This document shows positions 22,540 through 41,404 of a DNA stretch of 64,000 nucleotides, piece after piece (the first letter of the stretch is position 1; every line of letters starts with the position of its first letter). The notes under the pieces are model-generated. The model was not told where the DNA came from. It was given only the letters and a program-made list of their open reading frames with translations, and did not search any database. The DNA comes from Candidatus Aminicenantales bacterium (GTDB lineage Bacteria > Acidobacteriota > Aminicenantia > Aminicenantales > Saccharicenantaceae), in NCBI GenBank assembly GCA_049512315.1, contig JBEKXF010000015.1, positions 1 through 64,000 on the forward strand, given 5' to 3'. The position numbers and the translations under genes were made by a program.

Positions 22540-22577
22540 TGTGTCCTCTCTGTTGGATCGATCAAGTGGGGGATAAA

Positions 22578-22606: not shown

Positions 22607-22618
22607 GAATTGAAGGTT

Positions 22619-24356: not shown

Positions 24357-25027
24357 GTCCAAAGTCTCCGGTGTACGGAGCGGTGATCTTCGATCTCGAC
24401 GGGACGCTCCTCGACACGATCGACGACATCGCTGTCGCCATGAACCGCGTCCTCGAGAGCCGGGGTCTCGGGTCCTACGCGATCGAGGCCTACAAGACGC
24501 TCGTCGGGGACGGGGCCGAGGAGTTGGTCCGCCGAGTCCTCTCCTCTCGCCCTCTCGCGGACGAGGAGATCGCCGGCATCCTCCGGGACTACCGCCGCGA
24601 ATATGACCTCTGCTGGAGGGCCCACAGCCGGCCGTACCCGGGAGTCCCCGAGCTCCTCGAAGAGCTGGCCCGCAAGGGTATCAAAACGGCCGTCCTCTCG
24701 AACAAATCCCATCCGTTCACGAAGACAATGACGAGTGAGCTTTTGGCTCCTCACCGGTTCGACGTCGTCCGCGGGGCGATGCCCGGGGTCCCGCTCAAGC
24801 CGGACCCGCGGCCGGCCCTGATGATCGCCTCGGAGATGGGCCTCCCTCCCGCCTCGGTCGTCTTCCTGGGCGACACGAACGTGGACATGCTGACGGCCGT
24901 GGCCGCCGGGATGCTCCCGGTCGGGGCGCTGTGGGGGTTCCGGAGCGCGGCCGAGCTCGAGGCGAATGGCGCCGCGGCCCTCGTCGCCTCCCCTCTCGAC
25001 CTCCTCGGCTATTTCCCCGCCGGCTGA
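24353..25027 (+). CDS. HAD-family hydrolase (phosphoglycolate phosphatase-like)
   Basis: FDLDGTLLDT, LSNK, KPDP and GDTNVD motifs; ATGA overlap with the previous gene. Confidence 0.92.
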   Translation: MSPKSPVYGAVIFDLDGTLLDTIDDIAVAMNRVLESRGLGSYAIEAYKTLVGDGAEELVRRVLSSRPLADEEIAGILRDYRREYDLCWRAHSRPYPGVPELLEELARKGIKTAVLSNKSHPFTKTMTSELLAPHRFDVVRGAMPGVPLKPDPRPALMIASEMGLPPASVVFLGDTNVDMLTAVAAGMLPVGALWGFRSAAELEANGAAALVASPLDLLGYFPAG

Positions 25028-25252
25028 TCCTCTTCATACTCCTCCCGGCCGGCCATCCGCCTTCCACGCCGGTCAAATAAGCCTTCCCGTCCCCCCCTCA
25101 CCCCCTCCGCCCCGAGGGTGCTTTTCGGGGTGACAAGGGGTGAATCAAAATCACCCTCCGTTTCACCCGGACGGGCTATTGGCCCCGTGCCGGCCGGGCC
25201 TATTATGGGGGCTGAGAACCAATGCGCAGGACCATGAATCCGAGGGATAGCC

Positions 25253-25630
25253 GTGATGACTGACAAGCGCAAAGAGCGGAGGATCCGGGAGGAGAACCGG
25301 GTCATCATCGAGGTCCCCGGCAAGTGGGGCCCGGAGGGCGGGCCCGAGATCAACGCCTTGACCCAGGACATCTCCCTGGGCGGCGCCAGGATCCTGATGA
25401 TGGACGAGTTCTTCCCCGTCGGCTCCTTCCTCAAGATGACCCTGTACCTTTCGAGGTCCAGGCAGATTGTCAAGGTCCACGCCAAGGTCCGCTGGGCCCG
25501 GACGATCGAGAACAGTTTCTACGAGATGGGCGTTGAATTCGAGCACGGCATCCCGGCCAGCGTCATGGCCCTCATCAACCATCTTTACAGGAAGGAGCAA
25601 AATGTCCCTGCCACGATCCAGGCCAAGTAG
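25253..25630 (+). CDS. PilZ domain-containing protein
   Basis: RKERR (RxxxR) and DISLGG (DxSxxG) c-di-GMP-binding motifs. Confidence 0.88.
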   Translation: MMTDKRKERRIREENRVIIEVPGKWGPEGGPEINALTQDISLGGARILMMDEFFPVGSFLKMTLYLSRSRQIVKVHAKVRWARTIENSFYEMGVEFEHGIPASVMALINHLYRKEQNVPATIQAK

Positions 25631-25847
25631 ACGGCCGGCGCGTCCGGAGGTTCGCCGGGGCGGTCAGCCCGCCTCATCGCTCGGGATGAGAGGGCGGGCC
25701 GAAATATCCTTTGGCCAATCGTCCGGAAAGGTGATTGTCATGGCGGGGGGCGCATGTCACACTGCCCGCGGAAGATACGGATATGGTCCGATCGAAAGAA
25801 AACGAACGAAAGGCCTGGCCCCCGGGGCCAAGGCATAGGAGGGTCCC

Positions 25848-27095
25848 ATGTTAGAGCAATTCGAAACCCAAAAAGAGCTGGCCTCGGTCTTCGACGGCAT
25901 CGAGGGCCAACTGGATAAGTCCCTGGCGACCCAGAAGGACGCCATCGAGAAAAGCCTGGTCGAGACGCTCAACCGGGAAAAAGAGGAAGCCCAGAAGAAG
26001 GTCGAGGCCGTGGAGCAGGAATTCGCGGATGGCAAGCGTATCCTCGAGAAGCATAAGGCCGCCCTGGCCGAGCTCAAGGCGGCCAAGGAGCAGATCCAGA
26101 GCCAGATCAAGGGGCACCTGGACCGGGCCCTGAGCTGCCGGCAGATGATGGAGAAGATGTCGAGCCAGGCCTATGAGGAGTTCGAGAAGATCACCCATCT
26201 TGGGATGGAGCTCGATGGGATCCGGCACCGGGCCGAGGAAGAGACCGACCGCCTCCAGAAGCACCTCGACGAGAAATACGGCATCAAGGCCCAGTTCCAA
26301 GCGGCGTTCGAGCCCGGCGAGACGGCGGCCGACCTGAGGCAGGAGATGCTGAAGATGAAGAAGGTCCGGGACCTCCTCGAGGCCGGGAAGGAGCCCGCGA
26401 CATCCGTGACATCGGAGACGCCCGGCGTAGAAACCCAGCCGGAGCCCCAGGCCGACGCCCGGGCTGCCGAGACTTCGGCGCTGGCCGATTTCTATGCCCA
26501 GGAGCCGTCGACCCCGGACGTCGAGACGTCAGCCGCAGAAGCGGAACCAGCGCCCGAAGAGCCCGGGGATTTCGAGCAGGAGGAACTTCGGATGCTCCTC
26601 GACCGTCTCGCGCAGTACCGCCGGACGGAGCCCGTCTATAACGGGACGGAGTTCGCCTATTTCCTGAAGGGTAAGAAGATGGTCCTCGACAGCGAATCGT
26701 TCGTCGGCACGGTGACCAGGATCTCGGACATCGCCAAGGGGCTTCACCTCAACCTCGGCCAGAAAGAGATGTCCAAGGACCTGTTCCTCATCAAGCAGGA
26801 GATCCTCAACCAGCAGGAGATCCTCCGGAAGGCCTTCCTCCGGGTCGTCCGGTTCTGCGAGAAAGAGGACGGGGCGGTCCCCCAGTACATCGCCGACGTG
26901 ATCAACGTCCGCATCCTCAAGGACATCCTGGAACGGCTGACCTTCGGCAATTGGAGCAATCCCGCCGATTTCAGCTCCTTTGCGGAGCACGTGAACAACC
27001 TGAAGGCCGCCTTCAATACGAAAGTCGCCCCCGCCCGGGATTACCTCAACTCCGTCCTCGAGCAGCTCGAAGGCGGGCCGGACATCCTGAACTGA
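25848..27095 (+). CDS. Hypothetical coiled-coil protein
   Basis: 415 aa; AGGAGG RBS; heptad-rich N-terminal half and acidic Pro/Glu linker. Confidence 0.75.
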   Translation: MLEQFETQKELASVFDGIEGQLDKSLATQKDAIEKSLVETLNREKEEAQKKVEAVEQEFADGKRILEKHKAALAELKAAKEQIQSQIKGHLDRALSCRQMMEKMSSQAYEEFEKITHLGMELDGIRHRAEEETDRLQKHLDEKYGIKAQFQAAFEPGETAADLRQEMLKMKKVRDLLEAGKEPATSVTSETPGVETQPEPQADARAAETSALADFYAQEPSTPDVETSAAEAEPAPEEPGDFEQEELRMLLDRLAQYRRTEPVYNGTEFAYFLKGKKMVLDSESFVGTVTRISDIAKGLHLNLGQKEMSKDLFLIKQEILNQQEILRKAFLRVVRFCEKEDGAVPQYIADVINVRILKDILERLTFGNWSNPADFSSFAEHVNNLKAAFNTKVAPARDYLNSVLEQLEGGPDILN

Positions 27096-27105
27096 CGGGA
27101 ACCGG

Positions 27106-28335
27106 TCAGATAATCTCGAGCTTGTCCTTTTCCGGGAGCTTCGGGAACGGCGCGTGAGGCTCCTGCTGGTACCAGAAAGCGACCGAAGCGATATCGTCCT
27201 GGAGCGGCAGGTACCGCCCCCCCGACATCCAGCCCAGGGCCTGGATCGTGACCTTTAGATCGTCGTCGAACCGGACCGGGTCCATGATGTGCCAGCGGTA
27301 GAGGCCGAAGCGCTGCTGGACCTGGTAGTGCCCGTCGCCGCGGATGACCTGGGCGAGGCCGGTGTACGGCGTCGTGAATTCGTGGTACTGAACGGAGCCG
27401 TCGGGCGCCTTGGCGTCGAAGTCGTACGAGCCGCAGAAATAATCCTCCGTCCCCGTACCGCAGATCGTCGGGAAGCCTGTGTCTCCGTCGATGAAGAACT
27501 TGATCTCACCCTCGCCCCACCAGCCGTTGTTATTAACCCCCCAGGCCAGGTAGGTCCCGACGTAATGGCCCCAGCCCTTAACTCCGTCGAGGATGGTGTA
27601 GACGCTCTTGGCGGGGAGCGGATTGACGCGACGGAACTGGGCGTGGAAGTATGCGGCGTCGGCGGGGACCTCGGTCTCCGTGTAGTTGATCTGGTAATAG
27701 ATGGTAAAGTCAATGTCGGCGATATTCTCGAGCGTGATCCTGAAGCCTTTGCGGAAGGGCATCTCCCAGTAGCAGTTGAAGGCGCTTCCGGGATTGACGC
27801 AGACCGGGAGCGAGGAGATCTGGGCGTACTGACCCCAGCCGCAGGCGAAGAAGTCGCCGAGCGGGCATTCGACCGAGGGCGTCGTTTCGCCGTCCCAGTA
27901 GAAGCGGATAATAGCGAAGCGCAGGGTGCCGGCGGGCGTGCACCAGATCTGCTGGATTGCGCCCTGGCCCTTGACGTCGGCCATGACGAAGGTCTGCTTG
28001 GGCTTGATCGTGACGAAGGGCGAGACCTTCCAGCCCTGGCCGAGGTCCCGGGCCGCGTTCTTGGCCGGGCCATCGACGGACATGCCCGCCTTGCCCTTCT
28101 CGCCGGTGAAGTTCTCCGGGCTGATGGACCGCGTCTTGGCGTGGGAGAGGCGGGAAAGACTGCCTAGGCTCATGGAGAGCCCCTTGAAGGCCTTCTCGTC
28201 CTGCGGCCCGGCGGCGGACGGCGAGGTGACGGCGAAAACGAAGATGCCCAGGGCCAGGAGCCCGCAAGCGGTTTTCAACCAGCGAAAGGACGGCCTCTCG
28301 GAGCACCTTTGATCGTGGCACGTATTTTTCGTCAT
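27106..28335 (-). CDS. DUF2961 / glycoside hydrolase family 172 protein
   Basis: SISPENFTGEKG, PSVECPLGDFF, WWGEGEIKFF, GTGTEDYF and YRWHIMDP motifs; AGGAGG RBS before ATG 28335. Confidence 0.9.
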   Translation of the reverse strand: MTKNTCHDQRCSERPSFRWLKTACGLLALGIFVFAVTSPSAAGPQDEKAFKGLSMSLGSLSRLSHAKTRSISPENFTGEKGKAGMSVDGPAKNAARDLGQGWKVSPFVTIKPKQTFVMADVKGQGAIQQIWCTPAGTLRFAIIRFYWDGETTPSVECPLGDFFACGWGQYAQISSLPVCVNPGSAFNCYWEMPFRKGFRITLENIADIDFTIYYQINYTETEVPADAAYFHAQFRRVNPLPAKSVYTILDGVKGWGHYVGTYLAWGVNNNGWWGEGEIKFFIDGDTGFPTICGTGTEDYFCGSYDFDAKAPDGSVQYHEFTTPYTGLAQVIRGDGHYQVQQRFGLYRWHIMDPVRFDDDLKVTIQALGWMSGGRYLPLQDDIASVAFWYQQEPHAPFPKLPEKDKLEII

Positions 28336-28446
28336 GCACTCCTCCTTTGGCGGATTTTTTGACGGCATCGGCCCGATACCCTGATCGCCCCCCATTCTAA
28401 TCCATCTGAATTTGGGGACACAATGCTCATTTCCGAATTCGTTAAG

Positions 28447-28694
28447 TTTGGGGTCGGACCTCAGTAACCAATTGATAATAATTAATATAATCATTTTTGT
28501 AAGCCCTTTTTTAGCCCTAAGTCTTCATTTTCAGGCCCGAAAACAACGACTTAAGAGCCCGTCAATGCACAACTAGGAAAATTACCTTAAGTCCGCGTTT
28601 ACGGGGGCAAAAAGGGCAATTTAAGGCCGAAAAAAGGCTGCGAAAATGAGTCAAATGATTTTTTTTCTTGCAGTTACTGAGGCCCGACCCCAAA
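28447..28694. mobile_element. 248-bp non-autonomous (MITE-like) derivative of the Y1-transposase element
   Basis: 22-bp terminal IR with 21/22 match; two 40-bp subterminal palindromes (28516-28555, 28586-28625) matching those around the transposase at 35.7-36.7 kb; only 30 bp between them. Confidence 0.88.
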
Positions 28695-28773
28695 TTCCAG
28701 TCCGTCCCCTTTGGGAGGACAGTCCCTATCTGCCCCACCCGACGCGTCGCCAACAAAAAACTAAAATCGCGTC

Positions 28774-28841
28774 TTGACAACCTCTCTTTTCGGCTCTATG
28801 TTATAAACAATGATATTGGTCATATGACCAATATCATTGTT
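28774..28841 (+). promoter_or_regulatory. sigma70 promoter followed by a 36-bp perfect palindromic operator
   Basis: TTGACA (28774-28779)-N17-TATGTT (28797-28802); palindrome AACAATGATATTGGTCAT|ATGACCAATATCATTGTT (28806-28841). Confidence 0.8.
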
Positions 28842-28898
28842 CGTTCAGCTTATGGCTGTTGCGGCCGCGTTTCCCGAACCCGGCCGCCGGAGGCACCG

Positions 28899-29255
28899 AT
28901 GCTGGAGCCACTCCTGGAATCCGAAATCAAAGAAAAGGCTCTCCTTTATCTTTAAACTCATGGCGAATCCTACCCCCGGGAGATCGCCCGCTCTCTGGGC
29001 CTCTATATCCATGCCGTTCAATACCAGCTATTGAAGCTGGAAAATGGCGGTGTTCTCTACAGCAAGCTCAGGGGAAAAATCAGGCTTTTCGGGTTCAACC
29101 CGCGGTATCCCTTCAAGAAGGAGCTGGAAGCGCTACTGGAAAAAGCCCTGTCCTTTATCCCTGAGGAAGAAATGGACAGGACTTTTCGACCTCGATTAAG
29201 GCCGCGCCGTAGCGGAAAACCGCCGCTCCGGTCCAATCCATCGATGAGGCCATGA
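28899..29255 (+). pseudogene. Winged-helix (ArsR-like) regulator/antitoxin with premature TAA at codon 19
   Basis: GGAGG RBS; MLEPLLESEIKEKALLYL*THGESYPREIARSLG...QLLKLENGGVLYSKLRGKIRLFGFNPRYPF...RPRRSGKP reads as one frame with a single nonsense codon at 28953-28955. Confidence 0.8.
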
Positions 29256-29330
29256 TCACCAAGGGAATCTCACTCCGGGACCTGGCCGCATTCTTGTCCG
29301 ATCATGAGCGGCGAAACGGCATCGAGGAGG
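29252..29330 (+). pseudogene. 5' remnant of a translationally coupled partner gene (possible nucleotidyltransferase-type toxin)
   Basis: ATGA overlap with the wHTH stop; MITKGISLRDLAAFLSDHERRNGIE, then no longer looks coding. Confidence 0.45.
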
Positions 29331-29414
29331 AACTATTTTTCCGTTTCAATTGTATTATTGGTGAAGCCGCCGGGCCTCAAAACAGGGTCGGGCGGGGCTC
29401 GCCAGGAGGAAACG

Positions 29415-32400
29415 ATGGAACAGAATGAAAAAAATCATCGGCCGCTGACCATAATCTCAGCCCTTGTCTTTGTGCTATGCCTCGCGGCCGCGGCGCTTCT
29501 CGGGGCCCTTTCCGGATCTTCACCAGGCTTCTGCCCTCCTCCCGCCCTGTCCGCGCCCTCGCCGCTGCCTCCACATTCATCCCCGTCCGTATCAACTCTT
29601 CTGGCCGCGAATCAAGCCGCGATAACCGAGCCGCATTGGCTCTCTCCCGCTCCGCTCCTTCCGCCGGGCGCATCCGATTCTCGACAACCCGCGGCCTCCC
29701 AGGCCGCCGACGAGCCGGGCCGCAAGCGCGTCGAGCGGCTCATCAACGAGCAGAAATTCGAGGAAGCGGCCAAAGAGGCCGCGCGCCTCCGCGGCGAGGC
29801 CAGGCGGGCCGGAGACGAGACGCTCTGGACCTGGGCCTTGATCAAGGAAGTCCAGCTCCGCTCCGGCCTCCACGGTTATGAGACGGCCGTCCGCTTCCTC
29901 AAAGAGGAGCCCTGGCCGCAGTCGCCCGTCAACCGCGACATGCTGGACCTCTTCTTCGCCCAATCCCTCGTGACCTATTACGATGCCTATTCCTGGGACA
30001 TCAACAAGCGCGAGCGCGTCGAGGCCGCGGGCCCCATCGACCTCAAGTCCTGGACGAGGGACCAGATCTACGCGGAAGCCTGGTCCGCCCTGATGCGCGT
30101 CTGGAAGGACCGGGAGCGCCTGGCTGACCGTCGGGCCAGGGAATTTCCCGATTTCTGGACTCCCGGCGACTTCCCGGCCGGCATCCGCGACACCCTCCGC
30201 GACTCGGTCGTCTATCTCATCGCCCGGCTCCTCGCCGACACGAGCTTCTGGAACCCCCGCCAGACGAACGAAACCTATCTCCTCGACCTCGACAAGCTCC
30301 TGATGGCCCCATTCGACGCCAAGTCCGCCGCGGTGGTCCTCGAATCGCCGGCCGCGCACCCGCTCGAAAAAGCGGCCGCCCTCCTCGGCGAGCACGAGAG
30401 CTGGTGCCGCCGGTCCGCCGACCGTCCCGAGGCCGCCCTCGAGGCCCGCCTAGTCCGCATCGAAGCCCTTCACAACGCCTTTTCCCAGGACGACGACCGG
30501 GCCCTCATCCTCAAGCGCCTCGGCGAATTCCTTCCGGCTTTCCGCAAGCACGCCTGGTGGGCCATCGGGCAGGCCGTGCTCGCCGAATTCGCGCGCGCCG
30601 AGAACGCACCCGACAGCCTCGTCCGGGCCCGCGCCCTCGCCCTCCAGGGCACCGAGGCCTATCCCGGGTCGCCCGGCGGCCTCCGCTGCCTCTCTCTCGT
30701 CAAGAGCGTCGAGGGGCCTGAATACTCCATGGAGGCGATGGCGACCGACGCGCCCGGCCGCCGGTCCGTCCGCTTCACCCACCGGAACCTGGGCCGCGTC
30801 TATCTTCGGGCTTACCCGGTGGATATCGCCGACCGCATCAGGACGTCCAAGGACTACAACATCTTCCCCGCCTGGCAGGAAGTCCAAGGCATCCTTGAAA
30901 GCGCCAAGCCGGCCGCGGCCTGGAAGGTCGAACTGCCCGCGACCCCCGACTTCCGGGACCACCGGACCTACGCCGAGCTCCCGGCCGATCTCGCCCCCGG
31001 GGTCTATCTCGTGGCCGCCTCGGCCCGCCAGGATTTCGCCCGTAATGAAAACCGGGTCCTGGCCCTGAACGCCGCCGTCGGCGACCTCGTCCTCCTCAAG
31101 CGCGGCGTCTCCGCGGGCGGCGAGGAGGCCATCGTCCTTTCGGGCGGGACGGGCCGGCCCGTCGCCGGAATCGCGGTGGACCTTTATGCCTACGACTGGC
31201 GGCAGGGACACGCGCTTGTCGAGTCGCAGGTCACGGACGCCCGGGGCCGCGTCGTCTTCGCCGGCCGTGAGCGCACCGGCCCGCATTTCCTCCTCGCGAA
31301 GAAAGGCCACGACATCGCCTTCGACCCGGCCTACCTCTACCTTTACAGGAAGCCGGTCCCCGCCGAAACGAGCCATTCCCTCATCTACACCGACCGGAGC
31401 ATCTATCGCCCCGGCCAGAAGCTCTACTGGAAGATCCTGGCCTACCGGGGCCGCCAGGACCTGGGCCAGCTCCGGCCGGCCGCGAACGCCACGGCCTCGA
31501 TCTGGCTCGAGGACATCAACGGCCAGCGCGTGGCCGAAGCGACCGCCGCGACGAACGACTTCGGGACGGCGAGCGGCGAGTTCGTCCTCCCCGCCGCGGG
31601 GCGCCCCCTCGGGGCCTGGCGCCTCCGGAGCTCGCCGGAAGGGTATGCCGGAGTGCGCGTCGAGGAATACAAGAGGCCGACCTTCGAAGTGACCGTCAAG
31701 GACCCGGACAAGCCGCTGCGTCTCAACCGTCCCGCGGCGCTCAAGACCGAGGCCCGCTATTACTTCGGCCTTCCGGTCGCGTCGGGCACGGCCGTCTGGC
31801 AGGTCCGGCGCGAGCCGGTCTATCCGCGCTGGTGGTGGGAAACAGAAAGCGGCCGCTCGCAGATCATCGCCGGCGGCCGGGGCCAGGTCGCGGATGACGG
31901 GACCGTCGACGTGTCCTTCACCCCGAGCGCCGATGAACGGAAGGGCCGCTCCGAGCCGGGCCTCAGCTATCGCTACACCCTCTCGGTCGACGTCACCGAC
32001 GAGGGCGGCGAGACGCGTTCGGCGAAGCGGGCCTTCCGGCTGGGCTTCGTCGGTGTCGAGGCTTCGATCCGGGAGGAGAATAGGTTCGAGAGCGCGGACG
32101 CGGCGAGCGTCTTCTCGGTCACGCGGACCGATCTCAACGGGACGCCGAGGCCGGGCGCAGGGACATGGCGTGCCGTCCGGCTCGTCCAGCCGGAGGCGAC
32201 CCTTCTCCCCGCCGACCAGCCGATGCCGGAGCCGCCGGCAGGGGCAGGCGATCCCGTCGCTTTCCGGACACCGGGCGATCGCCTGAGGCCGCGCTGGGAT
32301 TATGCACTTTCGTACAACGAGGTCCTCCGTCTCTGGAAGGAGGGAACGGAAGCGGCGGCGGGCAAGGCCGAACACGACGCGAACGGCCAGGCGACGGTGA

Positions 32401-35400
32401 GCATTCCGCGGCTCGAACCCGGGGCTTATCGCCTGCTCTATGAGACCAAGGACGAATTCGGCGGGATCTGCCGCGAGAGCCTGGATTTCCTGGTCGTAGG
32501 GAAAAAGGCTTCGGCGCGCCTGCCGGTCCTGGTCAGCGCGGAGCAGTCCGTGGTCCCGGTCGGGAAAACCGCCCGGATCCTATTCCACAGCGGCTTCGCA
32601 GACCAGCCCCTGCTCCTCGAAACCTTCAAGGGCGGCGAGCTCTGGGAGCGCCGCTGGCTCGAGGCCGGGAAGGACGGCGGCATCCTCGAGATCCCGGTCA
32701 CCGAAGACCTCCGGGGAGGATTCGGGGCGCGCCTGACGGCCCTCAGGGACCACCAATTCATGACGGACGAAGCCAGCGTCTTTGTCCCCTGGGACAATAA
32801 GGAGCTCGACCTCACGTTTTCGACCTTCCGCGACAAGCTCGCCCCGGCCGGACGGGAAACGTGGCGGGTGACGGTCAAGACGCCGGGCGGAAAGCCCGCG
32901 GTCCAGGGCGCCGCCGAGCTTCTGGCTTACATGTACGACCGGAGCCTGGACCTTTTCGCGCCTCACCACCCGCCCAGCCTGTTGAACCTCTACCCGAACA
33001 GGGCGGGAACGGCGGCCTGGGATCCCGCCCTGGGCATGGCGCCGCAGGCGTACTCGGAGGATTCCGACTGGACCCATATCCCGGCGTTCCCAGCGTTCCG
33101 GCCGGCCGAACTCCTCGCGCTCAGCGGCTATGGGATCGGCGGGCCGGGTGGCCGCGTTCTGGGCGGTGTCGTCGGCGGAGTTCTCGGAGGAGTTAAGGCC
33201 GACAGGACTGTGACCGCCGCCGCGCCGATAGTCGACGTGAAGAAAACGGCCAGGGTGACGACATTAGCCGAGGAGGAGGCTCCGGCCAAGGAGAAGGCCG
33301 GCAAACCGGGCCAGGAACCGACGGCTGCAGGGCAGGAAGAGGCCGCGCCCTTGCGGTCGAATTTCTCGGAGACGGCCTTCTGGCAGCCCCATCTCCTCAC
33401 GGGCGCGGACGGGACGGCGGCCGTGGAGTTCACCGTGCCCGATTCCGTCACCGGGTGGCGGGTCTTTGTCCACGGGGTAACGCGGGACCTTATGGGCGGG
33501 ACGCTCGAGAAAGAGGCCCGGACCGTCAAGGAGCTCATGGTCCGGCCTTACCTGCCGCGCTTCTTCAGGGAGGGCGACCGGGCCGAGCTCAGGGTGATGG
33601 TCAATAATGCCGGGGAAAAGGAGATGGCGGGCGAGGTCGCGCTCGAGGTCTTCGACCCGGCCACGAATGAGAACCTGGCCCCGGCCTTCGGACTGCCCGC
33701 GAGCGTTCCGGCCCAGGTGTTCAAGGTCAAGGCGGGGGGCGGAGTAGCGGTCACATTCTCGCTCGCGGCCCCGGCGCGGGTGGGGACCGTGGCCTTCAAG
33801 GTCACGGCCAGGGCGGGGGCATTCGGGGACGGCGAACTCAGGCCGTTGCCTGTCCTGCCCGGGCGGATGCATCTCGTCCAGTCGCGGTTCGCGACGCTCA
33901 AGGAAGGCGGGACGCGCGAATTGAAGTTCGCCGACTTGGCGAAGACGGACGACCCCACGCGGATCAACGAGCAGCTCGTGGTCACGGTGGACGCCCAGCT
34001 TTTCTACGGGCTCCTGGACGCCCTCCCCTACCTCGTCAACTACCCCTATGAGTGCACGGAGCAGACGCTCAACCGGTTCATGTCCACGGGCATCCTGACG
34101 AGCCTTTACGACAAGTACCCGGCGGTCGCGCGCATGGCCCAGGCCCTGAGCAAGCGGGACACGGTTTACGAAACGTTCGACGCCGCCGACCCGAACCGGA
34201 AGATGGGGCTCGAGGAGACGCCGTGGCTGGCGGAGGCGCGGGGCGGCCAGGACGCGGGGTACGGGGTGGAGAAAGTGCTCGACCCGCGGGTGGCCAAGGC
34301 CCAGAGAGAGGCGTCGCTGGCCAAGCTGCTCAAGGCGCAGACTGCGATCGGGGCGTTCCCGTGGTGGCCGGGCGGGCCGCCGTCGCCCTACATGACTCTC
34401 TATATCGTCCACGGGTTCTCGAAGGCGATCGAGTTCGGGGTGGGCGTTCTGAAAGAGCCGGTCGTGCGGGCGTTCGGCTACTTGCACCGCCACTACATCG
34501 ACGAGATCGTGTCGATGCTCATGGCTCACGACACGGGCTGGGAGTTCGTCACGTTCATGAATTACACCATCAGCAATTTCCCGGACGCGACATGGACGGG
34601 CGGCGTGTTCACGGAGGCCGAGCGGAAGCTGATGCTCGACTTCTCGTTCAAGCACTGGAAAGAACACTCGCCGTACCTCAAGGGGTACCTGGCCCTGACG
34701 CTCAAGCGGGCGGGGCGGGTGAGGGACGCGGCGCTCGTCTGGGACAGCGTGATGGACAGCGCCAAGACGACGGTGGACGAGGGGACGAGCTGGGCGCCGG
34801 AGGACCGTGGCTGGCTCTGGTATAACGACACGATCGAGACGCACGCGTTCGCGCTGCGGACCCTGATGGAGCTCATGCCGGCTGACGCGCGGAGCGAGGG
34901 GCTCGTCCAGTGGCTCTTCCTCAACAAGAAGCTCAACCACTGGAAGTCGACGCGGGCGACGGCCGAGGTCATCTACTCGGTGGCCTACTTCCTGAAGCAG
35001 ACGGGGGCGCTCGGAGTGAGGGAGGCGGTGACGGTCGAGGCCTGCGGCACGCGCACGGAATTCACGTTCGAGCCGGACAAGTACACTGGAAAGAAAAATC
35101 AGGTAGTCGTCCCCGGGGATAGGCTGGCCGTGGCGCGGGGAGGCGCGGCGGTGCCGGCGGCGGCTTCGGCGGCTGCGGCGGGGGCCTCAGCGGCTGTGAC
35201 GGCCCCGTGCGCGACGGTCCGGGTCAGTAAGGAAGGGAAAGGGATGGCCTTCGCCAGCGCGACCTGGCATTTCAGCACGGAGAAGATGCCGGAGAAGGGC
35301 GAGGGGGATTTATTCGCGGTCGAGAGGAGCTATTTTAAGCGGGAAAAGAAGGGCGACGAGGTCGTGTTAAAGCCTCTGGCCGAGGGCGCGGCGCTCGCGG

Positions 35401-35756
35401 TCGGCGACGAGATCGAGGTGCAGCTCGCAATCCGGGCGAGGCACCCGGCCGAGTACGTGCATCTGAGGGACCCGCGGCCGTCGGGTTGCGAACCGGTGAC
35501 GCTCACGTCGGGGTACAAGTGGGACCTGGGGCTCGCGAGGTACGAGGATATCAGGGACAGCGGCATGAATTTCTTCATGGAGTGGCTGCCCCAGGGCGAG
35601 TACACGCTCAAGCACCGGATGCGCTGCGCCATGGCGGGGACGTTCAAGGCCGCCCCGGCGACGCTGCAGAGCATGTACGCGCCGGAATTCGCGGCCTACT
35701 CCTCCGGCTCGCTGCTGACCATCAGGATTAAGATGGGGTCGGACCATATTAACTAA
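29415..35756 (+). CDS. Bacterial alpha-2-macroglobulin family protein
   Basis: YTDRSIYRPGQ, VEEYKRPTFEV, LRSNFSETAFW, thioester motif YPYECTEQ, QSMYAPEF; AGGAGG RBS before ATG 29415. Confidence 0.95.
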   Translation: MEQNEKNHRPLTIISALVFVLCLAAAALLGALSGSSPGFCPPPALSAPSPLPPHSSPSVSTLLAANQAAITEPHWLSPAPLLPPGASDSRQPAASQAADEPGRKRVERLINEQKFEEAAKEAARLRGEARRAGDETLWTWALIKEVQLRSGLHGYETAVRFLKEEPWPQSPVNRDMLDLFFAQSLVTYYDAYSWDINKRERVEAAGPIDLKSWTRDQIYAEAWSALMRVWKDRERLADRRAREFPDFWTPGDFPAGIRDTLRDSVVYLIARLLADTSFWNPRQTNETYLLDLDKLLMAPFDAKSAAVVLESPAAHPLEKAAALLGEHESWCRRSADRPEAALEARLVRIEALHNAFSQDDDRALILKRLGEFLPAFRKHAWWAIGQAVLAEFARAENAPDSLVRARALALQGTEAYPGSPGGLRCLSLVKSVEGPEYSMEAMATDAPGRRSVRFTHRNLGRVYLRAYPVDIADRIRTSKDYNIFPAWQEVQGILESAKPAAAWKVELPATPDFRDHRTYAELPADLAPGVYLVAASARQDFARNENRVLALNAAVGDLVLLKRGVSAGGEEAIVLSGGTGRPVAGIAVDLYAYDWRQGHALVESQVTDARGRVVFAGRERTGPHFLLAKKGHDIAFDPAYLYLYRKPVPAETSHSLIYTDRSIYRPGQKLYWKILAYRGRQDLGQLRPAANATASIWLEDINGQRVAEATAATNDFGTASGEFVLPAAGRPLGAWRLRSSPEGYAGVRVEEYKRPTFEVTVKDPDKPLRLNRPAALKTEARYYFGLPVASGTAVWQVRREPVYPRWWWETESGRSQIIAGGRGQVADDGTVDVSFTPSADERKGRSEPGLSYRYTLSVDVTDEGGETRSAKRAFRLGFVGVEASIREENRFESADAASVFSVTRTDLNGTPRPGAGTWRAVRLVQPEATLLPADQPMPEPPAGAGDPVAFRTPGDRLRPRWDYALSYNEVLRLWKEGTEAAAGKAEHDANGQATVSIPRLEPGAYRLLYETKDEFGGICRESLDFLVVGKKASARLPVLVSAEQSVVPVGKTARILFHSGFADQPLLLETFKGGELWERRWLEAGKDGGILEIPVTEDLRGGFGARLTALRDHQFMTDEASVFVPWDNKELDLTFSTFRDKLAPAGRETWRVTVKTPGGKPAVQGAAELLAYMYDRSLDLFAPHHPPSLLNLYPNRAGTAAWDPALGMAPQAYSEDSDWTHIPAFPAFRPAELLALSGYGIGGPGGRVLGGVVGGVLGGVKADRTVTAAAPIVDVKKTARVTTLAEEEAPAKEKAGKPGQEPTAAGQEEAAPLRSNFSETAFWQPHLLTGADGTAAVEFTVPDSVTGWRVFVHGVTRDLMGGTLEKEARTVKELMVRPYLPRFFREGDRAELRVMVNNAGEKEMAGEVALEVFDPATNENLAPAFGLPASVPAQVFKVKAGGGVAVTFSLAAPARVGTVAFKVTARAGAFGDGELRPLPVLPGRMHLVQSRFATLKEGGTRELKFADLAKTDDPTRINEQLVVTVDAQLFYGLLDALPYLVNYPYECTEQTLNRFMSTGILTSLYDKYPAVARMAQALSKRDTVYETFDAADPNRKMGLEETPWLAEARGGQDAGYGVEKVLDPRVAKAQREASLAKLLKAQTAIGAFPWWPGGPPSPYMTLYIVHGFSKAIEFGVGVLKEPVVRAFGYLHRHYIDEIVSMLMAHDTGWEFVTFMNYTISNFPDATWTGGVFTEAERKLMLDFSFKHWKEHSPYLKGYLALTLKRAGRVRDAALVWDSVMDSAKTTVDEGTSWAPEDRGWLWYNDTIETHAFALRTLMELMPADARSEGLVQWLFLNKKLNHWKSTRATAEVIYSVAYFLKQTGALGVREAVTVEACGTRTEFTFEPDKYTGKKNQVVVPGDRLAVARGGAAVPAAASAAAAGASAAVTAPCATVRVSKEGKGMAFASATWHFSTEKMPEKGEGDLFAVERSYFKREKKGDEVVLKPLAEGAALAVGDEIEVQLAIRARHPAEYVHLRDPRPSGCEPVTLTSGYKWDLGLARYEDIRDSGMNFFMEWLPQGEYTLKHRMRCAMAGTFKAAPATLQSMYAPEFAAYSSGSLLTIRIKMGSDHIN

Positions 35757-36745
35757 TTGATATTTCAATAGTTATACCAGATATCGGGCCTCATTTTTGC
35801 CTTAAGTCTTCGTTTTCGGGCCTCAAAACAAAGACTTAAGAAAAGCCAAGAGCCAATGAGTTCTTTGGCTGCCTCTCGACGTCCATTCATTAGGACAAAC
35901 AGAGAGGACGATGGCACGGGCAAACCGCTATTACCAGCCTGGACTCATCTGGCACATAACTCACCGATGCCATAAAAGGGAGTTTCTCCTGAAGTTCATC
36001 AAGGACAAGCAAATGTGGTCCCGGTGGGTACTCGCTTCAAAAAGGCAATTCGGGCTCTGCATCCTGAATTATGTAATCACATCTAACCATATTCATTTGC
36101 TCATTCTCGATAGGAATCAAAACGCAGATCAGACTATCTCAAGGTCGCTTCAGTTGGCAGCCGGCCGGGTCGCGCAGGAGTATAACAAAAGGAAGAAACG
36201 CAGCGGGGCTTTCTGGGAGGATCGCTACCACGCTACGGCCATAGAGACAGGCGATCATTTTATCAATTGCCTCACCTATATCGACCTGAATATGGTCAGG
36301 GCGAAAGTCGTAGGCCATCCCGGCGATTGGCCGTTCGGAGGCTATTATGAGCTTCAGCAGTCCCGGGAACGCTTCAGGAACCAGCTCGTGGACTGGCGCA
36401 CCCTCTCGCTCCTTCTTGGGATCAAGAGCTTGGAGAGCTTGCGAGACGCGCGAGCCGAGTGGGTCGAAAAGAAATGCCTAGCTGGGAAGCTCGAGCGCGA
36501 CGCCAAATGGACGGAGAACGTGGCCGTCGGGAGCCGAGAATATACGGAGAAAATAATGGAAAAGTTAGGAAGAAAGATGAAAAGGGAGGAAGAACAAGGA
36601 GGGGGCACGATATATCCTCTTCGCGGAGGGGGACCTGCTTAAGTCCGTATTTTGGGGGGTCAGAAACACGGATTTAAGCTCTAAAAGAGCCCGAAAAATT
36701 CATGTATATTATTTATAATAATATATTTAAATTGGTCCGACCCCA
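35734..36745 (+). mobile_element. Terminal-inverted-repeat-flanked HUH/Y1 transposase element
   Basis: 13-bp perfect IR TGGGGTCGGACCA (35734-35746 / 36733-36745); subterminal palindromes at 35801-35840 and 36638-36678; single Y1 gene, no tnpB, no target duplication seen; AT-richer than the flanks. Confidence 0.88.
35911..36642 (+). CDS. Y1 HUH transposase (IS200/RAYT-like superfamily)
   Basis: MAR..R...G..WHITHR, HUH motif SNHIHLL, GAFWEDRY, catalytic Tyr in YIDLNMVRA, DWPFGGY. Confidence 0.92.
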   Translation: MARANRYYQPGLIWHITHRCHKREFLLKFIKDKQMWSRWVLASKRQFGLCILNYVITSNHIHLLILDRNQNADQTISRSLQLAAGRVAQEYNKRKKRSGAFWEDRYHATAIETGDHFINCLTYIDLNMVRAKVVGHPGDWPFGGYYELQQSRERFRNQLVDWRTLSLLLGIKSLESLRDARAEWVEKKCLAGKLERDAKWTENVAVGSREYTEKIMEKLGRKMKREEEQGGGTIYPLRGGGPA

Positions 36746-39081
36746 ATTTTAAGGATTTCTTCCAATTTCGCGGTCGAGCCGAACTGCTGCTTCCAGCGCT
36801 GCTCGAGCTGGGGCATGAAGGCGGGGTCCGCGGCCCGGATTTTTTTCAGCCTCCCCCCAGCATAATCCTTCTCTGCATCGTCGAGCCCGTCCCACGCCGT
36901 CAGGTAGAAGTAAAGGATATTGAGGTTGAGAAACTCGTCAACCGGGTTGAGCTCGAGCGCCTGCCGGAAATAGAGCTTCGCCTTGTCCGCATATGTCATC
37001 AGCGGATAGTTATAGAGGAGATAGGTCATTCCCATCTCGTAATGAGCTGCGGAGTCGCAGGGGTTCTCCGCGATGACCGCCGCGTAGGCCGCGACCGCCC
37101 GGTCGCAGTACATGTCCCGTCTCTCGGCGTTTCCCGCCTCATTCTCCACCCGGGCCATGTCCAAGTAGAGCTGTCCCAGCGTTTTTCCTATCTCCGGGTT
37201 GCCCGCTTCCCCCGTCGCTCTTTTCAATAATCCCTCGAGCTCGGGAAAGGCGCTCTGCACGCTCCGGGCCCGCGACCGCGCGTCGCGATAGAGGCCGAGA
37301 TAATGGAAGCCGAGGAAGTCCCGCGTCGCGACAACCAGGAGGGCGAATGTCGCGATGCCCATGACGGCCGTTTTCCATGCTCTCGCTCCGCTCGTCCAGC
37401 CCGCACTTGTAATCGCGCGTCCGCCGCTGCCTCCCCCCGTCGACTCTCCCCTCTTGTCCCCTCGTCCCCCTTCGTCCACCGCCTCTCTTTTAACCGCGTT
37501 TCCTCCCACGCTTGAACTGACTGCCGAGCTTGCATTTGCGCCGCTCCCTTCTCTTTCCTTTCTCTTCGTGACGACGTTTGTGGCCAAGGCGCATAGCCCC
37601 ACGAAATAGACGGCATTGGCCGGGATCTGGAGGTTGAAGTCCGTGAACCCGTGGATAAGGATCGCCAGGATCCCCAGGATCGCGCCCAGCCCGACGCCCT
37701 TGGCGAAGTTCGCCCTCCTCTTCCTCCACCTCCCGGCCAAGACCACGAAGAGCCAGATCCCGGCCACGATCAGGCAGCCGCCCGCGACAACCCCGTTCTC
37801 GGCCGTGGCCTCCAGGTAGTCGTTGTGGGCGTAGGAAAGCTGGTACCCGTCGTCGATCTTCTTGTACATCGGGTAGACGTCGAGGTAGGTCCCCTTCCCC
37901 GCCCCCGTCAGCGGGAAGTCATGGATCATCTCCATGGTGTTCCGCATGACGACCAACCGCCCCTCCCGGCTGAAGTCGGTCTCCGTGAACCGCTCGATGA
38001 CCGGACCGATCCCGAGCCACAGAGCCACGGCCAGCACGGCCGCGACGACGAGTCTCAGGATGCCGCGGGCCCGCTTCCGCTCGTCCGCCCGGTCCCAGAG
38101 CTCCCGCCAGCTCCCGAGCGCCCCGGCGGCCAGGAGGACGGTCACCAGGAAAATCATGATGCCCGACCGTGACTTCGAAAAAACGAGGGCGATCCCGATG
38201 AAAACGCTGCCGAGCCCGACGAGGAGCGACCACTGCAGGCTCTCCTGGCTGAACCAGAGGAATCTTTGGCGCCACCCGAGCCCCTTATCCATCAGGAAAT
38301 ACCGCGCCCGGGCCAGGAGATGGCCCAGGCTCAGCGGGAAAGCCATCTCCATGAAGCCGGCGAAATGGTTGCGGTTGATGTAGGTCCCCGTCACCGAGCC
38401 GATGTAATACTTTTTCTGGTAATCGAAGATCCTCTCCGACCAGCTGAAGGTCTCGGCCATCCCGTAGATAGCTTGGAAAAACGCCGACCCGATCATGACG
38501 AGGACGAAGATCTCGAGGCGGCGGCGTCCCCTGGCTGTCCGCAGGACGAGGAACCCGAAGATCCCGTAGCAGACCATAAGGATGAGCTTCCCGGCCGAAA
38601 GCCCCGGCGCCAGCGACAGCGTCCACCAGGCGCGCCCGTCCCATCCGGCCAACCCGTCGCGGGCCATCTCCTGGAAAATCGCGGCCGCGCGGGGCGAAAG
38701 GATTTTCACGGCCACGGGCGGCAAGGGCAGGATCTGGATGACGGAGGCGACAAGGAAGACGGCGAGCAGCACTTTCACGGCCCGCGGGATGGCCTCCGAA
38801 GCGCCGCCGATTTCGGGGCCGGCTCCGTTCCAATCCTCCTCCCCCCTCGCCCTGAATCCGCTTTCGGGCGGGCCGGAGAACCGGGTTTTCCCGGAAAATC
38901 CTTCGCTTATCCCGGGCGCCCCACGCCGCCGGGCCAAGAGCTCGCCGCCCACGTAGATGAGGAAAAGCGCGAGCGTCGCGGCCTCGAAGACGAAGATCGC
39001 CCACTCCTGGACCGACCCGATGGGAAGGGGGACGAAAACGAGGACCGCGCACAGTCCCCAGAAAACGATCGATTTATGCAC
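36727..39081 (-). CDS. O-antigen ligase / Wzy_C family membrane protein with C-terminal TPR-like domain
   Basis: GTYINRNHFAG, SKSRSG, PLTGAGKGTY and AHNDYLE motifs; helical TPR-like tail. Confidence 0.9.
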   Translation of the reverse strand: MHKSIVFWGLCAVLVFVPLPIGSVQEWAIFVFEAATLALFLIYVGGELLARRRGAPGISEGFSGKTRFSGPPESGFRARGEEDWNGAGPEIGGASEAIPRAVKVLLAVFLVASVIQILPLPPVAVKILSPRAAAIFQEMARDGLAGWDGRAWWTLSLAPGLSAGKLILMVCYGIFGFLVLRTARGRRRLEIFVLVMIGSAFFQAIYGMAETFSWSERIFDYQKKYYIGSVTGTYINRNHFAGFMEMAFPLSLGHLLARARYFLMDKGLGWRQRFLWFSQESLQWSLLVGLGSVFIGIALVFSKSRSGIMIFLVTVLLAAGALGSWRELWDRADERKRARGILRLVVAAVLAVALWLGIGPVIERFTETDFSREGRLVVMRNTMEMIHDFPLTGAGKGTYLDVYPMYKKIDDGYQLSYAHNDYLEATAENGVVAGGCLIVAGIWLFVVLAGRWRKRRANFAKGVGLGAILGILAILIHGFTDFNLQIPANAVYFVGLCALATNVVTKRKEREGSGANASSAVSSSVGGNAVKREAVDEGGRGDKRGESTGGGSGGRAITSAGWTSGARAWKTAVMGIATFALLVVATRDFLGFHYLGLYRDARSRARSVQSAFPELEGLLKRATGEAGNPEIGKTLGQLYLDMARVENEAGNAERRDMYCDRAVAAYAAVIAENPCDSAAHYEMGMTYLLYNYPLMTYADKAKLYFRQALELNPVDEFLNLNILYFYLTAWDGLDDAEKDYAGGRLKKIRAADPAFMPQLEQRWKQQFGSTAKLEEILKIGVGPI

Positions 39082-39094
39082 CGCGCTCCATCAT

Positions 39095-39130
39095 AAAAAA
39101 AAGCAGGAGGAATGTCTATCCCCCCTGCTT
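39095..39130 (-). terminator. Intrinsic terminator directly upstream of the O-antigen-ligase-like gene
   Basis: Minus strand AAGCAGGGGG...CCTCCTGCTT stem running into a T8 tract. Confidence 0.75.
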
Positions 39131-39240
39131 GGAATTGCGGTTTGCCCCTCTTCGGGCAACATCCGCCTTCAGACAGGATGCGTGACTACCGCGCGCTTAT
39201 CTTTGGCCTCGAAGCCTTTTGAGGCTTTCTCTGAATCCCT

Positions 39241-39762
39241 TTACCTGATCGGCGACTCTTCCTTATTCTTCGACAACACCAGGAACAGCACCGCGCCCGC
39301 GACGATCACCAGGATGACGATGCCGGCCGGAGACGTGAAGAAGCTTTTCTTTTTCGCGTCGACTCCCGTGGTCTGGCCGCCTTCCTGCAAGGCAACCGAC
39401 AGCTTGGCCATTTCGTTCCCCTTGAGGACCAGGGCATAATCGAAGTTGAAATCGTGTTTGGCCGCCGTGACGCCGAGGATGTAGCGGCCCTCCTCGATCC
39501 CCGTGATCCTGTACATGCCGTTGGCGTCGGTCGGCATGCTCTCATACTCCATCGCCTTCTCAAGGTTTCGAAGCTTGACCGTGGCGTTCGGGACGGGCGT
39601 CTTCATGTCCTTGTCATAAATGAAGCCGACCAGGGATCCGCCGGCCGCCGGCAGGGCCGCCTTGGCCTGGGCGAATTCTGCGACCGGCGTCACCAAGAGA
39701 ACGAACGCCGCCAGAACGCAGCTAACCAAAATGCGAGACCGAAAGACACTGTTGATGATCAT
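39241..39762 (-). CDS. Exported carboxypeptidase-regulatory-like (prealbumin-fold) domain protein with C-terminal TM anchor, paralog 1
   Basis: Signal peptide; GSLVGFIYD..TPVPNATVKL..TDANGMYRITGIEEGRY; tail FFTSPAGI-TM-KNKEESPIR. Confidence 0.8.
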   Translation of the reverse strand: MIINSVFRSRILVSCVLAAFVLLVTPVAEFAQAKAALPAAGGSLVGFIYDKDMKTPVPNATVKLRNLEKAMEYESMPTDANGMYRITGIEEGRYILGVTAAKHDFNFDYALVLKGNEMAKLSVALQEGGQTTGVDAKKKSFFTSPAGIVILVIVAGAVLFLVLSKNKEESPIR

Positions 39763-39853
39763 GCTTAACCTCCCCTGATCTCAAGAAAATAATAATCGCA
39801 ATTCCGATTCCTGTCCAGCGATTATTTATTCCCTCTTGAGATATCATCTTTCG

Positions 39854-39959
39854 CGTAAGTCCCGCTTTTGGGCCACGGAAATAAAGACTTAAGGCGGGAA
39901 AAGCGGGGCGCAGATAGCCTAATTGTATTATTTTGTTTCAGTTATCGTGGTCCGACCCC
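39854..39959. mobile_element. Solo end module of the Y1 element family
   Basis: 40-bp palindrome CGTAAGTC...GACTTAAG (39854-39893) and GGTCCGACCCC ending at 39959, with the same 66-nt offset as the other four ends. Confidence 0.82.
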
Positions 39960-39969
39960 GAAATAGACC

Positions 39970-40497
39970 TCACCTGACCGGCGAAGCCTCCTCTTTTTTC
40001 TTCGTCAGCTCGTAAACCCCGAACCCTGCGCCGCCGACCGCAAAGATGATCACGGCGATCCCCGCGGGTGTGCCGAAGAATTTTTTCGACGTGCTCGAAC
40101 CCAGCCCCTTTCCTTCCAGGACCCCAGCCCCTTTCATGGACAGGCTGAGCTTGGCCCTCTCGCCCGCCTTGATATAAACCCCGTAGTTCAGGTTGAAATC
40201 GCCCAGGTCAGATTTGATACTTAACGTGTACCAGCCCTCGTCAATGCCCGTGATCGCGTACATCCCTGCCTGGTCCGTCGTGCTCGAGAGCTCTTTTTGG
40301 GTATTGAGGTTCCGGATCTTGACCGTGGCGCCGGCAACCGGGGTCCTCATATCGGAACCGTACACGAAGCCCGTGATCGCCCCTCCCTTGAGCGGCGCCT
40401 GGGAGGCGAATTCATTGACCGGTGTCATCAGCATGATAAACGCCGCCATCACCCAGACCACCATCACCTTTGACCGAAAAATGCTAAAATTTAGCAT
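39970..40497 (-). CDS. Exported carboxypeptidase-regulatory-like domain protein with C-terminal TM anchor, paralog 2
   Basis: AGGAGG RBS before ATG 40497; colinear with paralog 1; tail FFGTPAGI-TM-KKKEEASPVR. Confidence 0.8.
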   Translation of the reverse strand: MLNFSIFRSKVMVVWVMAAFIMLMTPVNEFASQAPLKGGAITGFVYGSDMRTPVAGATVKIRNLNTQKELSSTTDQAGMYAITGIDEGWYTLSIKSDLGDFNLNYGVYIKAGERAKLSLSMKGAGVLEGKGLGSSTSKKFFGTPAGIAVIIFAVGGAGFGVYELTKKKEEASPVR

Positions 40498-40532
40498 AAT
40501 TTTGGCCTCCTTTTTAACAATAATAACGCATT

Positions 40533-41336
40533 TCACCTTATTTTTACAAGGAATTGTTTTCTTGGCATGGGCCGGCGCTCTGCCCAGGTCTTCCGCCTCA
40601 GGGGGTTCTCGGGCTCCCCCCAGTCAGGCAGGGCCCTGTTCTCGAGGATCGCCCGCGGGATTTCGGTGACCATGGCCACGGCCTTCGCCTCTCCCACGAT
40701 CTTCCGCGCTGCCTCGACCGCCCCGCTCAGCACGGGCGGCCTCATCAGCGACGAATGGGCGTCGCTCGCGATGATATGGACCAGGTTGTGTTCCATGAAG
40801 AGCCCGGCCGCGCTCCGCGTCTCGCGGCCGAACTCGCCCGTGAGGCTCATGGCCGTGACCTGCGCGATGCAGCCCATCGACACGAGTTCGTATAGCACCT
40901 CCGGCCGCTCCATGAACCCTCTGTTCCGCTCGGGGTGGCTGATGATGGGCACGAAGCCCTTGGCCATGAGGCTGTAGATCAGGTTCCCTATGCCGGGCGG
41001 CACAGTGTCGCTCGGCAACTCGATGAAAACATAATTCGTGTCGTCGAGCGTGAACCCGTATTTTTCGATCGATGCGACGACCTCGGGATGGACGAAGACC
41101 TCGGCCCCCCAGTGAAAATCGATCGGCACCCCATCCATGCCTTCGACGAACTCGGCCATCCTCTGCCTGAGGACGTTCAGGTTATCGCCATAGCGGCTCA
41201 GCCGGAAGACATGCGGCGTCAGCGCGATCACCGTGATGCCGTCCTTCTCGGCGATCCGGCACATCTCGCGGGCCTGGGGGCGGTCGTCCGGGCCGTCGTC
41301 CCAGTCCCAGAGCAGGTGCGTATGAAGGTCGATCAC
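40533..41336 (-). CDS. CpsB/CapC-family PHP tyrosine phosphatase
   Basis: MIDLHTH, DDGP, TPH, HPERN and ASDAH motifs. Confidence 0.92.
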   Translation of the reverse strand: MIDLHTHLLWDWDDGPDDRPQAREMCRIAEKDGITVIALTPHVFRLSRYGDNLNVLRQRMAEFVEGMDGVPIDFHWGAEVFVHPEVVASIEKYGFTLDDTNYVFIELPSDTVPPGIGNLIYSLMAKGFVPIISHPERNRGFMERPEVLYELVSMGCIAQVTAMSLTGEFGRETRSAAGLFMEHNLVHIIASDAHSSLMRPPVLSGAVEAARKIVGEAKAVAMVTEIPRAILENRALPDWGEPENPLRRKTWAERRPMPRKQFLVKIR

Positions 41337-41370
41337 GGCGTGGTCCTCTTTAATTTAGTCGGCCGAGTAT

Positions 41371-41395
41371 GGGGTCAATACGTAGGTTTGACCCC
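41371..41395. repeat. Short GGGGTC-capped palindrome
   Basis: GGGGTCAA-N9-TTGACCCC between wzc and the phosphatase gene. Confidence 0.55.
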
Positions 41396-41404
41396 GTCCT
41401 GCAT

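Follow-up and report, generated by a model that had tools for sequence, protein, structure and literature searches.

The stretch analysed here (the window) comprises 64,000 nucleotides, positions 1 to 64,000 of contig JBEKXF010000015.1 from a Candidatus Aminicenantales bacterium (assembly GCA_049512315.1, a genome of 3.55 Mb hereafter designated as G000, other G numbers denoting its relatives), and contains a family of elements that combine a Y1 transposase gene with inverted ends of about 106 bp. The full element (1,010 bp, 35735-36744) carries a single-copy Y1/HUH transposase gene (35911..36642, + strand) encoding 243 aa with the motifs NHIH, WEDRY and YIDLNM; only one match was detected in G000 at E<=1e-40. 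Its left end (35735..35840, + strand) comprises an 11-nt terminal word, a site matching the consensus of the integration host factor (IHF), phased tracts and a 40-bp dyad (35801-35840), while the right end (36638..36744, - strand) includes a 41-bp dyad (36638-36678) in which the stop codon of the Y1 gene falls. Neighbouring genes also read into these ends: a macroglobulin open reading frame (ORF) extends 22 nt into the left end and an O-antigen-ligase ORF 18 nt into the right one, and in relatives with no end at these sites the two genes stop earlier or differently. A promoter and terminator scan of the full element gave chance-level results. Two further forms were found in the window: a gene-free miniature, or mini, of 242 bp (28450..28691, unstranded), with two inverted ends around a 30-bp centre, unstranded 40-bp dyads at 28516..28555 and 28586..28625 and no target duplication, and a single end (39854..39959, - strand; dyad 39854-39893) located 10 nt beyond a stop codon, for which no partner was found. 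Full, miniature and single-end forms therefore coexist in this Y1-linked family, as proposed in a preliminary description of the same DNA.

According to that description, the outer G of the terminus and the near arm of a palindrome are separated by 66 nt at each of the five ends, and its coordinate pairs were all correct (28450/28516, 28691/28625, 35735/35801, 36744/36678 and 39959/39893). The same is true for the sequences flanking the termini (AAGAT/AATTT and AGTTT/AAATT), which show no target duplication, and for the strong divergence of the spacers at constant length, with 36-62% identity among the five window ends. The terminal word is exact in four of the five ends, but the end at 28691 reads GGGGTCGGGCC. 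Palindromes of 40-41 bp are present as well, but their arms are limited to 8 bp with 0-2 mismatches and their interior is only partly symmetric.

At the genome scale, 23 of the 35 GGGGTCGGRCC words have an arm at offset 66, against 0.07 expected, and a terminus lies precisely 66 nt from each of the 19 strict palindromes. Searching G000 with a hidden Markov model (HMM) revealed 25 ends, and GTCGGRCC was placed in register even by an HMM from which the terminal word had been left out. Of the 87 genomes of the family set, 41 contain the standard pattern, with 0-2 hits per genome for a reversed-pattern control; a looser pattern was found in 17 of 301 genomes of the phylum. The expected co-occurrence with the Y1 clade was recovered in metagenomes: at least 597 homologue loci were found, and of the best 80, many on short contigs, 68 have an end and 50 have ends in both orientations, with 125 ends scored. 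Nearly all of 25 homologue loci are flanked by ends, and the 66-nt offset is kept at a Desulfobacterales locus whose Y1 protein is only 45% identical. The Y1 gene was detected in 23 of the 87 family genomes, always once except in G021, whose two genes differ in terminus type, and in 10 of the 16 genomes holding at least five ends; eight of the 46 family genomes without the standard pattern also bear the gene, each with variant ends beside it. Viral contigs yielded no relative, plasmids only distant ones (25-33% identity), and a scan of named genomes one useful locus. As a separate observation, the homologue-bearing Desulfobacterales contig has pieces of a group II intron at both of its extremities (L017:1-84 and 2901-2976).

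The 243-aa protein matches Pfam Y1_Tnp (E 3.5e-8), scores below the cut-offs of the NCBIfam RAYT (72.7 bits, cut-off 80) and IS200 (19, cut-off 55) models, and has a predicted fold (pLDDT 83.7) nearest to E. coli TnpAREP (4ER8). Among 95 aligned homologues, out of 120 listed, H60, H62, Y123 and N127 are invariant and M128 occurs in at least 90%, giving the clade the motif Y---NM and the tail consensus WPFxGY; homologues are mostly 254-265 aa long. The C-terminal part is helical in the structure model, with no Pfam helix-turn-helix (HTH) domain in any of the 95, and an atlas search with this part returned uninformative matches. In a quick tree, the clade lies apart from NP-type references, but the IS200 and E. 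coli RayT branches were too long to be placed; with plasmid references picked by motif and long branches, its deep branching is unreliable. Terminal words also differ between clades (GGGGTCGGACC versus GTGCCTTGGCT): ends with GTGCCTTGGCT flank a distinct Y1 clade (SH-aLRT 98 in the quick tree) and form dispersed families of their own. Judging from sequence comparison, the terminal word thus appears to be swappable on one scaffold and to follow the clade of the Y1 protein. In three other genomes (G025, G054 and G032; loci L037, L038 and L040), Y1 proteins reach 308-311 aa where complete, with additional residues following the HUH strand, and the genomes carry the ends whose spacing is increased by 10 or 11 nt, with a different motif at positions 60-69.

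The spacer had been regarded as a free ruler, a view that has to be revisited since it contains a fixed IHF-consensus site and phased tracts. The consensus WATCARnnnnTTR (checked in 10.1101/382655) is found reversed at end positions 16-28 or forward at 28-40, so that its centre lies near position 28 either way. At these fixed positions and with at most one mismatch, it was detected in 14/27, 45/69 and 112/135 ends of three sets, against 0.6, 1.3 and 1.9 after shuffling, that is in 171 of 231 ends versus about 4, four ends of another genus being unscored; with at most two mismatches, 106 of the 125 metagenomic ends have it, against 13.6. In the window, the left ends of the full element (35750..35762, - strand, positions 16-28 of the end, reversed) and of the mini (28465..28477, - strand) match without mismatch. 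Along the ends, A/T tracts further alternate with G/C ones, with a periodicity of 10.7-10.9 bp. Spacing, which was thought to be invariant, turned out to be quantised: in the 263 ends that could be scored, 102 of 365 being too weak, the centre of a TTTT-N8-AAAA core falls within 85-88 for 239 ends, within 90-94 for none, one helical turn further in (96-99) for 21 and elsewhere for 3. These whole-turn shifts may be viewed as a natural version of the experiment, proposed earlier, in which the spacer is changed by 5 or 10 nt. In some lineages, DnaA-box-like words occupy a constant place within end positions 47-58 (L485-L491 in G151 and G311, L452-L459 in G046), in 3/6, 3/3 and 6/34 ends, these counts being small and uncontrolled.

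The palindrome itself, CTTAAGTC..GACTTAAG, is not invariant across the clade. Only 15 of the 125 metagenomic ends have an inner arm with two mismatches or fewer, a TAAG/TAGG remnant persisting in 82, and palindrome scores are weak in 75 of 135 ends of a sister genus. Pairing across the dyad is not better than with randomly re-paired halves (13.20 pairs versus 13.12+-0.15, p=0.29, n=84), and this partner-shuffle test rules out the hairpin reading: in the absence of covariation, the palindrome is not a selected hairpin. No Rfam match at E<=1 covers the ends in seven loci. From these patterns we infer that the IHF site, the phasing and the whole-turn spacing are meaningful on double-stranded DNA only.

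Termini bear several marks of activity, although the outer G, initially taken as the cut point, is an improbable one. GGG makes up the first three letters in only 84 of the 125 ends at Y1 loci, and lineage-specific letters reach 3-5 nt beyond the outer G, suggesting that the true element boundary probably lies 3-5 nt outside GGGG. That the terminus region behaves as a breakpoint is supported by strict tandem duplications abutting 35 of 363 termini, as compared with 0.37 in shuffled sequences, 0.73 in native intergenic regions and 2 inside the end; by the filter used, the 35 are not orthologous repeats. Their units measure 7-22 nt and mostly start 6-12 nt outside the first G. A heuristic ORF test indicated that the adjoining gene takes its stop codon from the end in 45 of 233 cases and that a stop precedes the end by 1 nt in 21, while a reversed -35 word is found within 14 nt of 21/233 ends versus 2.8 expected. 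Among 235 ends, 56 minis of 172-278 bp were identified. Direct repeats of 0-3 nt in all 56 rule out a target-site duplication, those of 2-3 nt arising from the AWT letters outside each end. In the loci examined, G031 has 19 minis, nine of which are exactly 224 bp long, at unrelated sites, with a median identity of 81% and no gaps, indicating that the mini is the unit that spread. Among the joints listed from contigs of four of the nine runs, none skips exactly the mini or the full element; in a related organism, one contig of low depth connects 35724 with 36773 through 34 other letters, and a 28478-35799 joint corresponds to another copy of an end.

Comparison between species points to a slow tempo. 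No two G000 ends share more than 76% identity, 9 of the 25 are common to other species, and 54 of 86 ends from relatives could be mapped to G000, 18 of them to a site with an end. The 242-bp mini is missing at the orthologous site in G006 and G007 and decayed in G005; at the site of the single end, G007 has a truncated end and G003 and G005 have none. In four genomes of the genus (G000, G003, G005 and G008), the Y1 gene occupies the same locus, at the macroglobulin gene's 3' end, and it is not at that site in G006 and G007. This tempo matches the REPIN-RAYT pattern and is unlike that of an active insertion sequence (IS). Ends are also clustered near the gene, with 3 within 10 kb in G000 (0.13 expected) and, for G045, 14 of the 39 no further than 15 kb away (0.34 expected). 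There, gene blocks bounded by ends of the same orientation vary among G045, G044, G031 and G057, and G000 differs from G005 by 4.3 kb and one end. Two right ends are mosaic (93% versus 37% over the flank, 67% versus 90% over positions 87-107); for the right end of the window element (36638..36744), the two probable source ends occur separately in G005. Blocks and mosaics fit Y1-driven exchange or ordinary recombination alike. Sites of attC type, always 3' of genes, were ruled out by the lack of orientation bias among 111 ends.

Although this family was initially viewed as a distinct system, it is better described as a variant of TIRtrons, and the precedent named at that time, the TIRYTs, is real (Di Nocera 2013). 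TIRtrons consist of a Y1 gene with inverted ends, with a GGGGWSAS motif and dispersed families of terminal inverted repeats (TIRs) (Di Nocera, De Gregorio, Rocco 2013, PMC3733652). Likewise, the present family combines a RAYT-like Y1 gene with inverted repeats unrelated to the GTAG repetitive extragenic palindromes (REPs), a GGGG-type terminal word, and repeats dispersed in the genome as singles, dimers and groups. It differs in having GGGGTCGG in place of the published GGGGWSAS, with G for A at position 7; seven of the eight positions are respected, and some relatives have GGGGTCAG or a different word, GGGGWSAS being reported as a majority feature and not an obligatory one (PMC3733652). The accessible part of that description holds no phased end of about 106 bp, IHF site, fixed spacing or mechanism, and its Figure 9 and S4/S5 may list members of the clade. 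Subclass 2.1 of TnpAY1, which includes 20 of 26 TIRYTs (Quentin et al. 2018, PMC6006769), corresponds to RAYT Group 1 (Bertels et al. 2017, PMC5581495). As far as these sources could be accessed, the window protein resembles its members by its length, close to the median of 238 aa, its NHxH and WE motifs, the lack of REPs and a low copy number, and differs by Y---NM in place of the class-2 signature Y---NP (PMC6006769), the lack of the SS tail motif and of an HTH-like Pfam match, and a clade separate from NP-type references in the quick tree. Given that the TIRtron definition applies and two of the 2.1 motifs are missing, the family was filed as a TIRtron variant and its subclass left open.

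Other systems share more limited features with these elements. REPIN-RAYT systems and REPtron-BIMEs also have a single-copy resident Y1 gene and diverged, persistent, extragenic two-ended minis (10.1101/2021.07.10.451892, PMC3333891, PMC8266576, in their accessible parts). Unlike Groups 2/3 of RAYTs, however, the consensus of the ends has no GTAG tag and no covarying hairpin, units measure 106 nt instead of 20-40 nt, and an IHF site is contained in each end rather than separating two REPs, suggesting a family that works alike without being a member. The HUH/Y1 fold and the lack of target duplication are shared with IS200/IS605 elements (IS608, ISDra2), from which the family differs by inverted ends, a single copy and no subterminal hairpin under pairing selection. 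In CRISPR leaders with Cas1-2/3, an IHF site and inverted-repeat motifs fold about 100-150 bp and bring the enzyme to strand transfer (10.1101/2023.05.26.542337, accessible part); enzyme and chemistry are unrelated and no CRISPR array occurs here, so that this is a working analogy for an element known from sequence alone. Our literature search, in which subscription papers were thinly covered, found no description of this end architecture. The feature is thus of a known kind, with an architecture not found described.

Taken together, we lean towards a TIRtron variant acting in a REPIN-like manner, in which a vertically kept, single-copy Y1 enzyme would recognise an IHF-bent double-stranded end and nick it near the terminus, with a slow spread of minis of 210-260 bp. 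One Y1 gene, at one locus per lineage, would service the dispersed 106-bp ends, whether in minis, as singles or around the gene itself. The end would be read as double-stranded DNA, with IHF, or an IHF-like protein of the host, binding near position 28 and producing a U-turn to which the phased A/T tracts would add curvature. Y1, bound at about positions 60-95, would be brought beside the terminal word and its outer flank and would nick the terminus or flank with loose positioning; geometrically, a U-turn centred at 28 would set positions 62-68 or so, including the near arm, opposite -6 to -12. As in the model of BIME amplification (Ton-Hoang et al., PMC3333891), a nick followed by short 3'-OH extension and phosphotyrosine rejoining may generate the tandem duplications. 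Nicking followed by repair may delete the flank up to stop codons and -35 boxes, and nicks at both ends may account for rare mini movement without target duplication. The binding of IHF and Y1, the position of the nick and the strand state at cleavage are thus all predictions from the architecture of the end. G000 encodes two HU/IHF-family proteins with best scores on IHF models, which are candidate partners.

Several observations weigh against this scenario. Y1 enzymes characterised in the cited literature, as far as accessible, use single-stranded DNA, and no band shift of double-stranded DNA was seen for TnpAREP of E. coli (PMC3333891). No Pfam family other than Y1_Tnp was detected in the 95 clade members, and no C-terminal DNA-binding domain was found. 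Both IHF-like proteins of G000 score below the NCBIfam cut-offs, and perfect IHF matches are restricted to two of the five window ends, the other three having at least two mismatches. Duplications start at -3 to -13 and end at -1 to +13, and since neither position is fixed, no single nick site is defined. Empty sites exist between species, as anticipated, but they yielded no clean junction and have 15-19 nt replaced; the clearest of 12 G031 sites compared (L274) shows this replacement, most intergenic regions being too diverged or rearranged for such comparisons. Crossovers of the two mosaic ends fall inside the end and not at the terminus. A Y1 match was not found in 6 of the 16 genomes with at least five ends, several of which are fragmented, and the counts given above are non-independent because the genomes are kin. 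A more ambitious extension, which we consider doubtful and draw from analogy, would have Y1 act on IHF-folded double-stranded ends like a DDE transpososome or a Cas1 leader complex, with no use of single-strand hairpins, and, in addition to copying minis, exchange gene blocks between direct ends beside its own gene, as a slow integron-like array, the terminal 11-mer being an exchangeable determinant of specificity on a constant scaffold.

In a first alternative explanation, former TIRtron termini might be kept by the host as IHF-bound curved sites, similar to BIME-1/RIB or topoisomerase sites, with host proteins sensing the phasing and Y1 reading only the terminal word, in single-stranded form. 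Copies lasting at orthologous sites across species while diverging, ends in genomes such as G006 and G009 with no detected Y1, a terminal word varying with the protein clade over a constant inner module, and the frequent IHF site in the BIME-1 linker (PMC3333891, accessible part) are all in line with this explanation. It is nonetheless unlikely, given that the module flanks the gene across phyla, down to the distant Desulfobacterales locus, that the distance between the right end and the Y1 coding end is nearly constant and the two often overlap, and that the distribution is patchy, more than half of the family genomes (46/87) being without the standard pattern. The variable end-bounded blocks described above, together with right ends made of the outer part of one end and the inner part of another, might instead reflect a cassette system in which Y1 recombines direct ends, so that blocks are gained or lost beside its gene in an integron-like manner. 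Yet gene order in G044 and G045 is otherwise collinear, ends are spread genome-wide with no orientation bias to genes, and the two crossovers, one of them weakly resolved, are explained equally well if the host recombines similar repeats; a cassette system therefore appears quite unlikely.

The model closest to the preliminary description, a peel-and-paste mechanism in which Y1 binds the 40-bp palindrome as a single-strand hairpin, as for IS608 or REPs, and guide pairing sets the cut at a distance, is one that we regard as very unlikely. In its catalytic core and fold the protein is of the TnpAREP/IS200 kind, TnpAREP is able to cut far from its binding site (PMC3333891, accessible part), and some copies do fold, the five window palindromes at -2.1 to -8.9 kcal/mol. 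However, mean folding energies of native and mismatched halves are similar (-5.6 versus -5.2+-0.3 kcal/mol), covariation is lacking, the inner arm is gone in many lineages, no guide-like word was seen by inspection to change along with the terminus swap, and the IHF site and whole-turn shifts have no role on a single strand. Finally, the ends might be moved by another enzyme with Y1 as a passenger. Tn3-family ends begin with GGGG and are associated with a 5-bp target duplication, and the GGGG start and TAAG inner edge of the present ends are reminiscent of them. A Tn3-type DDE transposase is nevertheless highly improbable, as direct repeats at the 56 minis are never of 5 nt, Y1 is the only gene enclosed by ends in the loci examined, and terminus type tracks the Y1 clade.

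Should the preferred double-strand reading be true, it would overturn the rule by which Y1 transposases depend on single-strand hairpins. Subclass 2.1 is the second-largest Y1 group, found in 14.9% of strains (PMC6006769), and has no defined substrate or mechanism in the accessible parts of the cited literature. The neighbouring clade offers a precise substrate, with a 106-bp end, a positioned IHF-consensus site, whole-turn variants, clade-matched terminal words and a predicted nick zone. The ends rewrite gene 3' ends, bound variable gene blocks and apparently host an IS at the dyad centre, and thereby shape these genomes.

This IS-like element, with a subterminal GAAGTGCAAC, is inserted at the centre of the 40-bp dyad and splits two minis; its two ends were found at contig ends of G000 (C5:~170, C21:~120, C23:~120 and C24:~54565). 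We take it to be possibly IS110/IS1111-like, the genome having three PF02371 matches that may be related to it. Elsewhere in G000, an IS200-type element (C44:9030-9473) borders the end at C44:8900 on its inner side. The genome also contains no fewer than three further TIR families whose Y1 genes are of NP type, represented by GGTGACACAC (59 matches), GGGGTCAAATC (15) and GGGGACACAAT (14). Such families, found in the window at 16469-16534, 22625-22691 and 28414 and elsewhere at C18:60719, C6:22269 and C15:68330-69010, often adjoin termini of the 66-nt-offset family. In run X5, a close relative (about 90x) covers 22000-28115 and almost none of 29161-41500; window positions ~28200-41500 are possibly a variable island, bearing in mind that contigs cannot prove absence. 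Within this region, a small regulator-like gene (28899-29255, + strand) has an in-frame stop at codon 19, where G006 and G007 have a sense codon.

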